A DNA stretch of 64,000 nt from Limisphaerales bacterium (GTDB lineage Bacteria > Verrucomicrobiota > Verrucomicrobiia > Limisphaerales > AAA164-E04): contig OZ242022.1 in assembly GCA_965204945.1 (NCBI GenBank), positions 4,245,591-4,309,590 on the forward strand, written 5' to 3'. Shown here in pieces: positions 3,698 to 9,542 of the stretch. The notes under the pieces were generated by a model. It was not told the DNA's origin. It made no database searches and saw nothing but the letters and a program-made list of their open reading frames with translations. The translations under genes and the position numbers were made by a program. How positions within the stretch are numbered: position 1 is the stretch's first letter; every line of letters begins with the position of its first letter.

Positions 3698-4058
3698 TTA
3701 GTCAAGGGCGGCCGGGCTTAAACTGGAGTCAGTGCCGCTGGTGTTATAGGCTTTGTGATACAATGCGTTGGCTTTGGCGTCGATGCTGCGGCCTTCTGTT
3801 TTCGTACCTGAGTCGTCGTAGGAATAATTTCGTTCGTAATATTCTCGGTTGAGGTAAAGCCATCCGTCAGGTTGCGCATAGGCGGTTTTCTGGAGTTTTT
3901 TTGGAGAACGCAGCATTGAGCGCCTTGTTGAGTACGTATCCGGCAAAGAATTTCACGAAGAAATCTCCGGATTTTGTGGCAAGGATGGGGACGAAGAAGG
4001 CCTCATGCGTTCTTTGATGATAGAAAACGCCGGTAGCAGTGATTGCGAGAGTGGCCAC
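3698..4058 (-). pseudogene. Hypothetical ~119-aa protein split into two frames at an A7 run
   Basis: ORFs 3867..4058 and 3698..3946 overlap. They join as ...NAAFSKK/LQKTAYAQPDGW... if the A7 run (T7 on + strand, 3896..3902) is read as A6. Confidence 0.3.
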
Positions 4059-4617
4059 TAGGGCGGTTTTCTTGCGCTAGTTCCATTGATTGAGCCGTTG
4101 GCGTAGAGGATGGAGTTTCGCTGACAAGCGAGAGACTGCGTTGACGGCGAGCATTTCAACCTTCCACAGGATGTCTTCCGGCCAGCGCAGGAACCAAGGT
4201 GTCTTCTTCGCATTCATTTCATTGTTAGGATTATCTTGACCGATTCGAGAGGAATTGTTAAGTGAGTTTTTGCTGTTTAATGGCGCCACAATACAGATTT
4301 CTTTATCGGTTCGTGTCGTTTATTCCGCAATTCGGGTCGATGAAACACACCCTAAGCACCGATCCCGAAACACCCATCCACTAACTTGCTAATTACAAAT
4401 CGAAAATATTAAACCACAAAGCACTGGCCGCTGATTTGCCAGCGCAGGAACTAGCCGGCTATATGTCACTGAGCCGTGGATCCCCGCAAATACCCGGCTG
4501 TTGGAGGAGGCAGACGAATCCACAAATCACAAGATACCGGCCACGAAGCTATGGTGGTTTGTCGTTTTTGTCGCTTGCCGCACAAACAGCCAAAAAATCC
4601 GCATCGCTAAACCGAAT

Positions 4618-5383
4618 CTACGAAGTTGCGGCGGCTTGGCGGCGTTGTTTCTTTTGCATCTTTTGGAAGTGGCGGCGGAGAATGACAAAACCCAAAGCAA
4701 ACAAGCCGAATACAAGGGCATATTCCTCCGGCTCGGGGATGGTGGCGCTGTGGAAGCGCAAAGTCACTCCACTCCCCGCAAAGTTCGGGTTCAGATTCGC
4801 CCAGTTGTTCACATTCCCGGTAACAAAATCGCTAACCGGCTTGTTTATTAACAAACCCGATCCCGTCCAAGAAGACGCCTGCCCACTATAACTCCCATAG
4901 TTGAAACCGCTGCTCACCCGAATGCCAATGTTGTCGGCGGAAGTCACATCGTTCATAAACATCCGATTAATCGTGCGGTTGACGGGCGTCGTGCCGATGG
5001 TGATGGTCGGCGTGTTGGTGGCGTTGTTGGCAAAAGGAGACCCCGAGCCCCAAACTCCCGCTATTCTATTACTCACCGACACGATGTCTTTGGAGTTGGA
5101 ACTGGAAAAGAGGGGAGAGAGCGTGATGGTTTGGTTGGAAGGCTTGTTGGCGTTGTAAATGTTGCTGGCCGTCTGCCAACCATCGGCGCTAGAAGCGTTG
5201 CCGCTGGTGCGCAGCGTGCCGGCGGCGCCGACACTGGAGCTGCCGCTAAAAATCCAGATGCTGTTGGTGGGGGTATCCTGGCTGGGATAGACGTCAATGA
5301 TCAACTGCGCTTGGGCGTTGCCCCCCCCCCCCCCCCCCGCAAATGCAGGCGATGGCGGCCAATAAGGGTAGTTTTCGTTTCAT
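4618..5383 (-). CDS. PEP-CTERM sorting-domain protein; signal peptide and body are in different frames across a poly-G tract
   Basis: C-terminus is IPEPEEYALVFGLFALGFVILRR plus a basic tail, which is the PEP motif, a TM helix and an Arg cluster. The body is Ser/Gly/Asn/Thr-rich. The ATG at 5383 encodes MKRKLPLLAAIACIC, followed by G18. The body frame reads GNAQAQLIIDV... (AXA cleavage-like). Confidence 0.75.
5321..5338 (-). repeat. Homopolymer G18 (C18 on + strand) inside the 5' end of the PEP-CTERM gene
   Basis: Counted directly: C at 5321..5338. Confidence 0.95.
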
Positions 5384-5995
5384 AAGAATCTAGTTCGCTG
5401 TCAAAAATCTCTTTGTTTCTAATCGCTCCGCCGCAACAAGTCAAGCACCAAAATCACAAAAAGAGAAAAAAGTTAAGAAAAATTCTTTGGAAAACGGCAA
5501 AATCCGCTCATTCAAGCGCGAAAAAGAGGAATTCGCTGAGGAATGGGCGAGCCAAAGCTGGTTTTGGCGCGAATTGGGGGAGAGTGCAAAACAAGGAAAC
5601 CCTCAAAAAACGCGCAAATTCCATCTTGCTGTTAGCCAAGCGCCTCCTTGCTGTTGCAGGAAAAAGAAAGCTTTGGAGGCGGTTGGCCATCCAATCGACG
5701 CATTGGCTTTCACTGAATCAGCAAGGATGGAAGAGGCAAGAGGCGACGGCGGCCAAGCGGCAAGGCGGATTGGCTTGCGGGATTAGCGGTTGCCGTTCGT
5801 TTGTGGTCATGATTTCTTCTTCCACGGTCAAGTGATGAATAGGATCTCGCTGGCGGGATGGTTGAGTCAGAGCCGATGGCGGCGCGGTTTGCTTGGCTGG
5901 CGCGCATTTGCTGGCTTTTGAAGAGTTGGAAGGAATTTTCTCATGATTGGTTGGGGGCGCTTTTCTCTTCGATTGACCGGTTCGTCGTCTTCGTG

Positions 5996-6074
5996 CTGGC
6001 CGCTGGCTTCGCAAAGAGAGCGTCCAAAAGAGAAAGCCCGGAAAGGAAAATTCTTCCTTTGCCTTGCTGTTTAC
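5996..6074. repeat. Copy 1 of a ~80-bp conserved non-coding repeat (hairpin 6042..6060)
   Basis: Shares the invariant 20-mer GAGCGTCCAAAAGAGAAAGC, a hairpin, and GCCTTGCTGTT with copies 2 and 3. Confidence 0.85.
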
Positions 6075-6261
6075 AATGACCGGCGGCAAGCAAAGGACGG
6101 AATTCCCCAAAAAGCGCGCCGTTGTCGCTTTGCCAATGGTGATATTTTCTTTGGAGGGGAGAGCAAAGTTTCCTTCTCGTATTTTTTTGTGTTGAAGAGG
6201 GGTCGGGGATTGTTGGCAAGAGGGGATCGTTTTTTGAAGGAGGAATTCCCTTGCCGCCAAT

Positions 6262-6340
6262 CTCTGGCCATTGACTTCGCAAAAAGAGCGTCCAAAAGAG
6301 AAAGCCCGGAGGGCAAAATTTGCCTTCGCCTTGCTGTTAT
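6262..6340. repeat. Copy 2 of the repeat (hairpin 6309..6327)
   Basis: Same conserved blocks. It has a 1-nt length difference from copy 1, so any reading frame is not conserved. Confidence 0.85.
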
Positions 6341-6531
6341 GGGGACGGAAGTTTTGCGGAATGGGAAGAACGGGCAAGGACGACAAAACTGCAAAGGGGT
6401 CGAAGATGGGCGGTTAGTTTTGAAGGAGTTCCATTGGTTATTGGAGCTGGGCTGGCTATCGAATTCACCTAAGTGGTGAGAAATTCCATCTTGCCGATTG
6501 TAATAAGCGCCAATCCATTTTGGCCTCGAAT

Positions 6532-6615
6532 CCCTGGCTACTGGCCGCTGACTTCGCAACAAGAGCGTCCAAAAGAGAAAGCTGGGGGAAAATTCTTTTC
6601 CGCTTTGCTGTTTGC
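6532..6615. repeat. Copy 3 of the repeat (hairpin 6587..6601)
   Basis: Same conserved blocks. The 3' block reads GCTTTGCTGTT. Confidence 0.85.
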
Positions 6616-7370
6616 CCATAGCCGGCTTCCGGTTTTCCTATCTTCTCAAGTCAACAATCCCGAAGCCGTCGTCTTTGCCGAGAGAAAAAGGAAATGGGAG
6701 GCATTTTCTCGGCAAGGCATTGCGATTAGAGGGAACGCGCTCTGAATGGATGGCAAAGTTTCGTTGAACTTGCGCGGAGGTCAAGGATTATACTCGGCTT
6801 GCTGTTTTGATCAGGATGGGTTGCGTTCGATGCGGGCGATTACTTTTATGTTGCGCTGGAAATTACTAATACGGCGCCGAGGGTAAGCAATCCGAATCCG
6901 AATTCGGGCTGAAATTGATAATCAAGATATTCAGATTCTAATTCTTCTCGGTGCTTTGAGACCGCATAAACGAAATTATATTGAATTAAAAGGCTAACAA
7001 TCCCGGTGACATAAAGTCAGTTGTATTTTTTTTTTGAACAACACGAGAAGAAGGAAAAGCAAGCCTAGAATCATAACGATCTTTCCGTCTCTCGTGAAGT
7101 AGGGTCCGGAGTTCTAGATGTCTTCTTCCTGATATTCCCAAGTTTCTTCGAATGGGTGGTAGATTTTTGGTACTACTTTTACATAAGGAAGGAAAACTGC
7201 GATGATAAGAAAGCAGGAACCGATCAGGGCGAGAATCTGTTTTAATATGAGGTTGGCTTGGTTGCGGTTTTGCCGAGCGGGTTGCGTTGACTGTTTTTAT
7301 TTCGTTCATAATCTTGCGAGGAGTCGCCGACGCCATTGTTTTCAAAATGCAATTTGGGCGGCGCGTTGGT

Positions 7371-7601
7371 TTAAGGGAGGAAGACGCGCAGGAGGATGGC
7401 GATGGACACGGCAAAGTTCGCGCCAACCATCCATTTTAGCAGCCGCAAATCGGATTCCACGGAAGTCGCGCGGTTCTCGTAGGCCGCGATTTCTTCGGCG
7501 GCGGCCCGCGCTTGCTCTTCCGGCGCTCCGGCTGCTTTTAGCGCGTCGTAGGTTTTGGATAACATCACGCTCATGCGAAAAATGTGATCTTTTCGTTTCA
7601 A
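7371..7601 (-). CDS. Small DUF1640-like coiled-coil protein with C-terminal TM anchor
   Basis: SKTYDALKAAGAPEEQARAAAEEIA...DLRLLKWMVGANFAVSIAILL. It is a paralogue of the 50934..51347 gene. The start is uncertain (Met at 7601 or 7574). Confidence 0.6.
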   Translation of the reverse strand: MKRKDHIFRMSVMLSKTYDALKAAGAPEEQARAAAEEIAAYENRATSVESDLRLLKWMVGANFAVSIAILLRVFLP

Positions 7602-7901
7602 TATGGCAAGGGAAATTTAGCGGGACGCCGGGGAACTTCGTTGAGATTTGTCCGGCGTTCTATTTTGCGCTTGCGTGTTCGGCGTAGTTGAGGCATAATT
7701 TTTGGTCGATTGAATTGATGAGGGCGTTTGCGATCCAGAGGAGCGAGGGATGTTGGGTTCTCGTGAGGCCAAAGGCTGGGCGAGATGTCTTTTATCGAAC
7801 CTTCCATGATTATTAGCGTCGGTTAAACCGAGACTGAGCGGGGTCGTCCGTTTCTTCCCGCCTTGTTGCCGGCGTCTTTCTCTGTAAACCGAAGCGCGAC
7901 T

Positions 7902-9542
7902 ATGCCAAAGCAAAATTCTGAAATTGAGATTTACGACACAACTTTGCGGGACGGCACCCAAGGAGAGGGTGTCAATTTTTCCGTGGCCGACAAAATTCGC
8001 TTGGCCGAGCGCTTTGACGCTTTTGGCATTCACTATGTGGAAGGCGGCTGGCCGGGTTCCAATCCGCGGGATATTGAGTTTTTTGAGGCGGCCAAAGATA
8101 GGAAGTGGAAAAAAGCGCGGATTGCGGCTTTTGGCTCGACGCGGCGCAAGGGCGTTTTAGTGGAGCAAGATGAGCAGGTGCGCTTGTTGGTGGAGGCGAA
8201 GACGCCGGTTGTTACCATCTTTGGGAAAACCTGGCTTCTGCATGTAAAAGAGGTGCTAAAAGCGTCCGCGGAGGAAAATATTCGTATGATTGCGGACACG
8301 GTTCGTTATCTCAAAGAGCAGGGAAGGCACGTGATTTACGATGCGGAGCATGCGTTTGACGGGTTCAAGGACGATTCCGAATATGCGTTGGCGACTTGGA
8401 AGGCGGCGGCGCAGGCCGGCGCCGACACCGTGGTGCTTTGCGATACCAACGGAGGCTCCTTGCCGAGTGAGGTTTACCGAATCACGAAGCTGGCGATGGC
8501 GGCGCGCCGGCCTGTCGGCATTCATACGCATAACGACATTGGCTTGGGCGTGGCCAACGCGCTGGCCGCCATTGAGGCCGGCGCCGTTCACGTTCAAGGA
8601 ACGTTCAACGGCTACGGCGAGCGAACCGGCAACTGCAGCCTGACTTCCGTGATTCCCAACGTCGCCCTCAAGATGAACCGTCCCTGCGTTCCGAAGAAGT
8701 CGATTCGGGGTTTGGCGGAACTCTCGCGGTTCGTTGACGAGATCGCCAACTTGGCGCACGACAATCGGCGGCCTTGGGTGGGCGCCTCCGCCTTTGCCCA
8801 TAAGGGAGGCATGCACGTCAACGCCATCCAAAAAGTGGCCCATAGTTTTGAGCACAGCCGGCCGGAGACCGTGGGCAATCGCCGCCGCATTCTCATGAGC
8901 GATCTGGCCGGACGAAGCAATATCGTCATGAAGGCCAAGGAGTTGGGCTTTGCCATTGACAGCCATACGCCGGAGATCAAAGACATTCTCAAGGACGTGA
9001 AGAAACTCGAACATGAAGGCTACGAGTTTGAAGCGGCCGAAGCCTCGCTGTCGTTGCTCATCCGAAGGCGGCTGGAACACGTTCCCGCTCTTTTTCAAGT
9101 GGAGGGCTATCATGTTTCGATGCGGCGGGACGGCAAAGCGTCGGTGTGCCAAGCGACTACCAAAGTTCGGGTGGGAGAGGAAGTGTCTCACACGGTGGCC
9201 GAAGGAGACGGCCCTGTGAACGCTTTGGATGGCGCGCTTCGCCGGGCGCTTCGGCAGTTTTTTCCCAAACAGTTGAGGCCGGTTCGGTTGACGGATTACA
9301 AAGTGCGCATTCTGGATTCTTCGAGCGGCACTGCCGCTCGGACGCGCGTATTTATTGAGTCTTCGGACGGCAAGCGGAGTTGGTGCACCGTCGCCGCTCA
9401 CGACAACATTATCGAAGCGAGTTTGCAGGCGCTGATCGACGGTTTTGAATATCGCCTGCTTATGCAAAACAGATCGCGTCCGCAAGCGAATAAAAGCCGC
9501 CCCGCTAGTCGGCCTGCCGGCGGAAAGCGCAACGATTCTTAA
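7902..9542 (+). CDS. cimA: (R)-citramalate synthase / 2-isopropylmalate synthase family
   Basis: MPKQNSEIEIYDTTLRDGTQGEGVNFSVADKIRLAERFDAFGIHYVEGGWPGSNPRDIEFF plus the C-terminal LeuA-dimer-like region. ATG at 7902. Confidence 0.85.
   Translation: MPKQNSEIEIYDTTLRDGTQGEGVNFSVADKIRLAERFDAFGIHYVEGGWPGSNPRDIEFFEAAKDRKWKKARIAAFGSTRRKGVLVEQDEQVRLLVEAKTPVVTIFGKTWLLHVKEVLKASAEENIRMIADTVRYLKEQGRHVIYDAEHAFDGFKDDSEYALATWKAAAQAGADTVVLCDTNGGSLPSEVYRITKLAMAARRPVGIHTHNDIGLGVANALAAIEAGAVHVQGTFNGYGERTGNCSLTSVIPNVALKMNRPCVPKKSIRGLAELSRFVDEIANLAHDNRRPWVGASAFAHKGGMHVNAIQKVAHSFEHSRPETVGNRRRILMSDLAGRSNIVMKAKELGFAIDSHTPEIKDILKDVKKLEHEGYEFEAAEASLSLLIRRRLEHVPALFQVEGYHVSMRRDGKASVCQATTKVRVGEEVSHTVAEGDGPVNALDGALRRALRQFFPKQLRPVRLTDYKVRILDSSSGTAARTRVFIESSDGKRSWCTVAAHDNIIEASLQALIDGFEYRLLMQNRSRPQANKSRPASRPAGGKRNDS

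Follow-up and report, generated by a model that had tools for sequence, protein, structure and literature searches.

Repeats upstream of a PEP-CTERM gene in a Limisphaerales bacterium as putative copies of a dispersed, lineage-restricted non-coding core

The repeats found upstream of a PEP-CTERM surface-protein gene in the window—the whole stretch of 64,000 nucleotides of contig OZ242022.1 that was analyzed—are read here, with a confidence that is about evenly poised, as copies of a non-coding core, about 85–110 bp long and restricted to one lineage, in the long 5′ regions of a phase-variable PEP-CTERM gene family with more than 100 members. The preferred explanation, which may well be correct and may equally well not be, is that this core forms an upstream module, at the level of the DNA, in a contingency-gene family whose members recombine. 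According to this explanation, the core would act at the DNA level, upstream of the sigma-70-like promoter of the family and in one fixed orientation to the gene, and would represent the one stretch common to otherwise unalignable upstream regions. Recombination between family members would break and rejoin at the edges of the core, and short-tract gene conversion would keep neighboring cores alike, which would also account for the 20-mer that an earlier note on this DNA described as invariant. The conserved boxes consist of an A/G-rich 20-mer and a doubled TTGCC motif (TTTGCC-TTGCC) with the inverted partner GGCAA; they may serve as a family-wide regulator binding site, as a homology anchor for exchange, or as both. 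The repeated protein-binding or terminator element that had been among the earlier suggestions is the preferred functional reading for the DNA, with the core possibly being a candidate site of this kind.

Repeat architecture of the window

Three repeat copies had been described in this region, and a repeat search of the window recovers them at 5996–6052, 6264–6320, and 6541–6597 with identities of 79–88% (Table 1). The 20-mer GAGCGTCCAAAAGAGAAAGC is exact in all three copies and occurs without mismatch at no other place in the 4.32-Mb genome. The block GC(C/T)TTGCTGTT is likewise present in each copy, with an additional fourth occurrence at 6796, and the stems read as had been claimed: AAAGGAA/TTCCTTT in copy 1, GAGGGCAA/TTGCCTTC in copy 2, and GGAAAA/TTTTCC in copy 3. 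Degenerate echoes are also confirmed, at about 5625, 5647, and 6798. The heptamer CTTGCYG is found 11 times in 5600–6850 (seven on the + strand and four on the − strand), against some 0.5 predicted by the shuffle mean of the window; across the window in full, it is found 53 times, compared with 23.7 in shuffles. Core copy 3 is followed by a local hairpin, AGCCGG-CTT-CCGGTT (6620–6634), with a T-rich tail. The start-to-start distances of the three copies are 268 and 277 nt. Neither is a multiple of 3 (the remainder is 1 in both cases), which means that a single ORF running through all three copies would use a different frame in each; the argument from frame against coding is thereby upheld. The overlapping ORFs over the repeats are without any Pfam match. 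Protein coding of the repeat region can be set aside.

Table 1. Features of the PEP-CTERM gene and its upstream region (positions are those of the window)
Feature	Position	Strand	Remarks
PEP-CTERM surface-protein gene	4618..5383	−	out of frame as sequenced at the G18 tract (5321–5338), signal-peptide region
Sigma-70-like promoter of the PEP-CTERM gene	5416..5444	−	TTGACT (5444–5439), 17-nt spacer, TAGAAA (5421–5416)
Damaged “B” subfamily promoter-proximal module	5440..5711	+	partly deleted; CTTGCTG echoes at 5625 and 5647
Core copy 1	5996..6072	+	left box CTGGCCGCTGGCTTCGCAA, 20-mer 6018–6037, hairpin 1 6042–6060, GCCTTGCTGTT block 6061–6071
Second inverted repeat, copy 1	6063..6090	+	CTTGCTG (6063–6069), 14-nt loop, CGGCAAG (6084–6090)
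Degenerate partial core	6153..6177	+	hairpin like that of copy 2, then T run; terminator-like site
Core copy 2	6264..6339	+	20-mer 6286–6305, hairpin 6309–6327, block 6328–6338
Core copy 3	6541..6613	+	20-mer 6563–6582, hairpin 6587–6601, block 6602–6612
Degenerate fourth core	6748..6809	+	GGATGGCAAAGTTTCGTT ... GGCTTGCTGTTT; from repeat search
Conserved boxes of the core			20-mer plus TTTGCCTTGCC...GGCAAG

Dispersal of the core in the genome

The number of copies is far larger than the three of the earlier note: iterated nhmmer yields 53 copies in this genome (G000), and a covariance model yields 48. The genome-wide survey had been set beforehand as a check on the proposal; besides the high copy number, it revealed substitutions without a clear stem-keeping bias. 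The reported periodicity of about 268 bp does not reflect a tandem array. Tandem Repeats Finder run on the window found no array with a period near 268, and an alignment of four “units” of about 270 nt shows similarity limited to a core of about 85 nt, the remainder being unrelated. A tandem duplication of a regulatory region, which had also been considered, is contradicted by the flanks of the cores, which are homologous to different loci elsewhere. The block 5881–6087 with copy 1 is 89–95% identical to four other loci, 6129–6339 (copy 2 with flank) is 83% identical to the locus 980447–980659, and 6330–6612 is about 70% identical to other loci. The cores fall into two subfamilies: “A,” which is the type of the window, and “B,” which is promoter-proximal and features a longer loop. 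The columns of the TTTGC.TTG block are invariant across 30 diverse copies.

Association with the PEP-CTERM genes and their promoter

The PEP-CTERM family has 114 matches in the genome, which encodes two exosortases. The gene of the window passes the PEP-CTERM model TIGR02595 with 18.1 bits (cut-off 16). In most aligned paralogs, the start of the signal peptide is followed by a slippage-prone repeat, namely a poly-G tract or CAAGCGG repeats. The G tracts are about 10–20 long and located at the same spot in the aligned paralogs, two of which carry the CAAGCGG repeats instead; one paralog (locus near 620250 of the genome) features a long C run at this spot. Just past the stop of the window's gene, 4440–4617 is similar to the 3′ ends of family genes, which encode the PEP-CTERM part, and such 3′ segments occur in tandem elsewhere, for example, at 822625–823442 of the genome.

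The window's promoter stands some 35 nt ahead of the ATG, which is located at 5383. In an alignment of about 18 promoter-proximal regions, the pattern TTGAC(T/A)-N17-TA(G/A/T)AAA is conserved approximately 35–40 nt before the ATG, and among about 15 paralogs, both hexamers are kept with a variable spacer. Retention of the hexamers alongside spacers that vary from subgroup to subgroup is good evidence that this is the real family promoter. A T-rich tract precedes it. The “B” core lies about 70–170 nt upstream of the −35 hexamer and, hence, outside the predicted mRNA; the “A” cores of the window lie 610–1230 nt upstream of the ATG. A sigma-70 scan of 5250–7100 returned one site only, which is unrelated to the cores, and a 7-mer enrichment in 79 upstream regions recovered the shared modules with no single motif singled out. 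Rho utilization (C-rich gene-sense strand) was considered as well and rejected because the GC skew of 5400–6900 is the same as that of the neighboring genes.

In a tblastn search with family-protein queries, 43–45 of the 53 cores are immediately preceded by a PEP-CTERM gene of the family, or by a fragment of one, encoded on the opposite strand, with 7 of the 53 having no family gene within 2.5 kb. The C-terminal motif (PEPEEYALVFGLFALGFV...) is found 840–1900 nt from the cores. On the core's own strand, no constant gene is located 3′ of the core—the genes there are unrelated housekeeping genes. The core is tied to one paralogous family with a fixed position and orientation. The regulatory link to the PEP-CTERM gene that had been proposed is therefore sound in the broad sense that cores mark the 5′ regions of the family; its tandem-duplication part is not. 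By strict count, the core is detectable in 27 of 79 family genes, and overall in about a third to a half, so it is not needed for every member. Many cores adjoin broken or fragmentary genes.

Inverted repeats and folding potential

The hairpin of the core (hairpin 1) had been described as kept by compensatory changes. Its stems do pair; the compensation is barely above chance, with 89% paired versus 86% in shuffles. For the test, 92 copies (82 distinct) from three species were aligned to the model; in this alignment, 89.1% of the hairpin 1 cells are paired, compared with 86.4% when the partners are shuffled among sequences and 80–83% when they are slid by 1–2 columns. Double changes are observed in 13 cells versus 4.0 in shuffles, and G·U is found in 124 cells and A·C in 18. 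Purines make up the 5′ arm (AGGGGAA) and pyrimidines the 3′ arm (TTCCTTT); from this arm composition, we estimate that random pairing of the arms gives about 88% standard pairs and a large G·U excess. The high pairing after shuffling is, hence, explained by composition—a purine arm faces a pyrimidine arm. Chimeras of the 5′ half and the 3′ half of different copies fold with −4.98 kcal/mol versus −5.21 kcal/mol for native copies (p = 0.18). The + strand is more stable than the − strand (−5.2 versus −3.5 kcal/mol), and single-sequence folds reach a mean z of only about −1.1 on either strand. A G-C to C-G swap in the stem of copy 2 is real; the closest relative of copy 2 (near 2636396 of the genome) carries the 3′ change alone, and another copy features an uncompensated CGCC. 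RNAalifold, applied to a MAFFT alignment of 30 copies, yielded no consensus helix and no pairs, and a search of 4000–9000 against Rfam release 15 (E up to 1) gave a chance miRNA match only, with 21.5 bits versus a gathering score of 72. An alternative fold with an outer AAGAG/CTCTT and an inner TCCC/GGGA was discarded because the G009 copies read TCGC there. The potential to form the stem is conserved, and selection for the pairing itself is at most weakly indicated.

With its CTTGCCG, the GCCTTGCTGTT block supplies the 5′ arm to a second inverted repeat (CTTGCCG...CGGCAAG); the 3′ arm, CGGCAAG, follows about 13 nt on and is succeeded by TCTTTGT(C/T)CGCAAG. Besides copy 1, this repeat is found in 22 “class II” copies drawn from three species; the majority of copies (“class I,” to which copy 2 belongs) continue differently, with G/T-rich sequence. 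The second inverted repeat is register-specific, with 76.6% of the cells paired versus 25–28% when slid by 1–2 columns. Shuffled partners pair in 75.5%, and 152 of 500 shuffles attain the observed value, with no covariation seen. In 12 of the 22 copies, one position does not pair. G·U and A·C cells are equally frequent (13 each), which indicates no strand bias. A second register, TTTGCCT/AGGCAAG, was also tried and is worse than shuffles. Judged by these frequencies, the second inverted repeat is an ancestral DNA palindrome that appears to decay without compensation or strand bias, which argues against a conserved RNA. Some class II copies feature a 6–7 bp stem with a TCTTTGT tail, and most copies are without a terminator-like end. 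Terminator-like sites in 5250–7100 number 4, compared with 3.1 ± 1.7 in shuffles. G+C-rich hairpins with T-rich tails are also seen at 6824–6838 and 5785–5797 (+), at the ends of degenerate units, with a number not above shuffles. As to the family of small structured RNAs that the earlier note had proposed, a family does exist; an RNA structure is supported neither by Rfam and RNAalifold nor by the shuffles and the second inverted repeat.

Distribution among related genomes

The covariance model detects 48 cores in G000, 33 in G009, and 17 in G005. By BLAST and the covariance model, the core is absent from eight other congeners and from 30 genomes of other genera of the family or order. Six-frame matches of the PEP-CTERM family number 114 in G000, 104 in G009, and 107 in G005, with 0–1 in the other eight congeners; among the genomes searched, the same three hold both the core and the protein family. 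The PEP-CTERM family represents a lineage-specific mega-expansion in three species with genomes of 4.3–4.5 Mb. In G009 and G005, the PEP-CTERM motif, where seen within 1.5 kb, is located upstream of the core on the opposite strand. The core is alignable over about 100 copies of three species, and the flanks of the same copies are unalignable. Conservation between species is broad, with about 0.65 from −270 to +120 and a modest peak of 0.82 at the core, so the core is not a sharply isolated island in every subfamily.

Mosaic structure and exchange between loci

Homology from locus to locus ends at about +83 to +88 of the core or starts at about +8 to +12, which points to the core as the joint of mosaics. 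Such edge breakpoints would be expected at a conserved block whether or not the block has a function. The positional ortholog of copy 3 in G005 precedes cimA. The copy 3 flank 6378–6562 is 72% identical to this ortholog, and the similarity stops exactly where the 20-mer begins; from the 20-mer on, the core of copy 3 shares 31 of 71 positions with the G005 ortholog and 53 of 71 with copy 1. In a poorly resolved tree, common descent of copy 3 and the G005 ortholog is not rejected by the AU test (p-AU 0.38). The cores cluster by genome on the tree, with 21 label changes versus 40.9 in shuffles. The divergence of copy 3 from its ortholog, together with the confinement of the exact 20-mer to three neighbors, is suggestive of short-tract conversion between adjacent cores. 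The three distal cores of the window are probably by-products of exchange between family members and not three working units.

The structure of the region varies between strains, as copy 3 is missing in two instances: in G009, 121 nt stand in place of 6468–6851, and a sponge-metagenome contig of a related strain (run X6) joins 6364 to 6744. Pairs of 100%-identical segments of more than 3 kb around cores are also found in G000 (2758437/3085463 and 969587/1532579); these are recent large duplications with core, gene, and flanks.

Alternative explanations

It is unlikely, albeit worth weighing, that the cores are neutral relics, i.e., functionless remains of duplicated “upstream region plus gene” cassettes that are alike through recent copying or conversion. 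Both inverted repeats decay without compensation, as exemplified by the unpaired position of hairpin 2 in 12 of 22 copies, many cores stand beside broken or fragmentary genes, multi-kilobase duplicates of 100% identity exist, and the core is undetectable in most family genes—all of which such relics would accommodate. They would account less readily for a core that stays alignable across about 100 copies in three species while its flanks do not, for its fixed orientation relative to the gene, and for the invariant TTTGC.TTG columns of the 30 diverse copies. Small or cis-antisense RNAs, transcribed from the + strand away from the PEP-CTERM gene and comprising hairpin 1 and a terminator-like second hairpin, are quite improbable; they might act on upstream transcripts of sister loci. 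The paired fraction of 89% over the 82 distinct copies, the 13 double changes versus 4.0, the preponderance of G·U (124) over A·C (18), the more stable fold of the + strand, and the G+C-rich stem followed by a TCTTTGT tail at the end of several copies are consistent with such RNAs. However, shuffled partners pair nearly as often (86%, and about 80% when slid), arm composition alone predicts about 88% together with the G·U excess, and the chimera test is not significant (p = 0.18). RNAalifold finds no helix, Rfam no match, and the second inverted repeat neither covariation nor strand bias; moreover, the scan, the promoter alignment, and a reading of the sequence reveal no conserved promoter upstream of the core, and a terminator-like end is missing from the majority of copies.

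A miniature mobile element of the MITE, REP, or Correia type, inserting itself and accumulating near these genes by chance, would also be small, dispersed, and intergenic with internal inverted repeats, and its copy number would differ between species, as is the case for the core, whose presence or absence also varies at the cimA locus. This origin is nevertheless highly improbable: the edges of the core bear neither terminal inverted repeats nor target-site duplications, the orientation is fixed relative to one gene family, homology usually runs on into one flank, and the indel at the cimA locus spans about 310–380 nt and not the core alone. A clean empty site—the filled site minus the core alone plus a short duplication—was not found. 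Hardly tenable is a verrucomicrobial counterpart of the PEP-CTERM box with an enhancer site and a sigma-54 promoter under PrsK/PrsR control. PEP-CTERM genes are reported to follow long upstream stretches that have a pair of motifs in common (PMC1569441), and the left box of the core, TGGCC-N7-T(T/C)GCA, resembles a −24/−12 pattern. The PEP-CTERM box is defined by a −24 GG and a −12 GC 10 nt apart, directed toward the gene and located 23–221 nt before its start (PMC1569441). In the core, the GG–GC distance is 11 nt in the G000 copies versus 10 in the consensus and ranges from 8 to 11 across copies and species; the motif lies on the strand opposite to the PEP-CTERM gene and is directed away from it; the family genes have a conserved sigma-70-like promoter; and the motif of Haft et al. 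was seen only in Proteobacteria (PMC1569441). Identity with the sigma-54/PEP-CTERM box, hence, fails on spacing and strand.

Comparison with known systems

The PEP-CTERM genes of Proteobacteria are preceded by long upstream regions with a sigma-54 motif pair, and those outside Proteobacteria were noted to have upstream regulatory motifs that await discovery (Haft et al. 2006, PMC1569441). The core is one candidate for such a non-proteobacterial upstream motif. As with the PEP-CTERM box (PMC1569441), single-gene units have long non-coding upstream regions sharing a DNA element, and the element is distributed among lineages as the genes are. Unlike the PEP-CTERM box, the core is without a correctly spaced −24/−12 pair, its candidate motif lies on the other strand, and the genes have a sigma-70-like promoter; of the species searched, only three, all from one genus, contain the core. 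Reading the core as a DNA-level module, and not as a tandem repeat or a small RNA gene, would guide the annotation of long “empty” regions, and the core provides a defined sequence for testing regulator binding or recombination.

Contingency-gene families with on/off repeats are a textbook feature of host-adapted pathogens. Recombining, phase-variable surface-protein families with conserved 5′ homology blocks include Neisseria opa and pilE/pilS and Mycoplasma vsp/vlp. Like these, the present system features a large surface-protein paralog family whose members are each switched by a slippage-prone repeat where the signal peptide is encoded, together with upstream non-coding sequence common to the copies, mosaic structure, and signs of conversion. 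In contrast to the Neisseria and Mycoplasma families, the host is environmental or sponge-associated, the proteins are of the PEP-CTERM type, and the family is about ten times larger; distal “orphan” copies of the core, several to a locus, are also present, and a role in recombination is putative here. Three environmental or sponge-associated species carry about 100 genes each in such a family, and their upstream regions share a dedicated element that matches no described RNA family. A further reading, which is rather doubtful, is that the cores are cis sites coordinating the approximately 100 genes, either as docking sites of a regulator or silencer limiting the variants expressed or as initiators of gene conversion. 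Within this reading, their role would resemble that of the cis element preceding Neisseria pilE, and the + strand might give rise to a short divergent transcript. If true, coordinating cores would add a second layer of variation over the poly-G switches in a non-pathogenic, sponge-associated bacterium.

REP/BIME and Neisseria Correia elements are small dispersed intergenic repeats with inverted repeats. The core resembles them in its size class of tens to about 150 bp, its many copies, its intergenic location, and its hairpin-forming capability. Unlike these elements, it has neither terminal repeats nor target duplications, it is bound to one gene family and orientation, and its homology continues into the flanks.

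Occurrence in sponge metagenomes

In the sponge-metagenome DNA runs X5–X8, 22–39% of the sampled words from 4400–7400 are present, and contigs of 280–320 nt from these runs bear 1–2 differences from the window. These matches indicate that the organism or a close strain occurs in the sponge samples. Short-read contigs fragment within the repeats, and only 6042–7400 is covered by one long contig, with zero differences.
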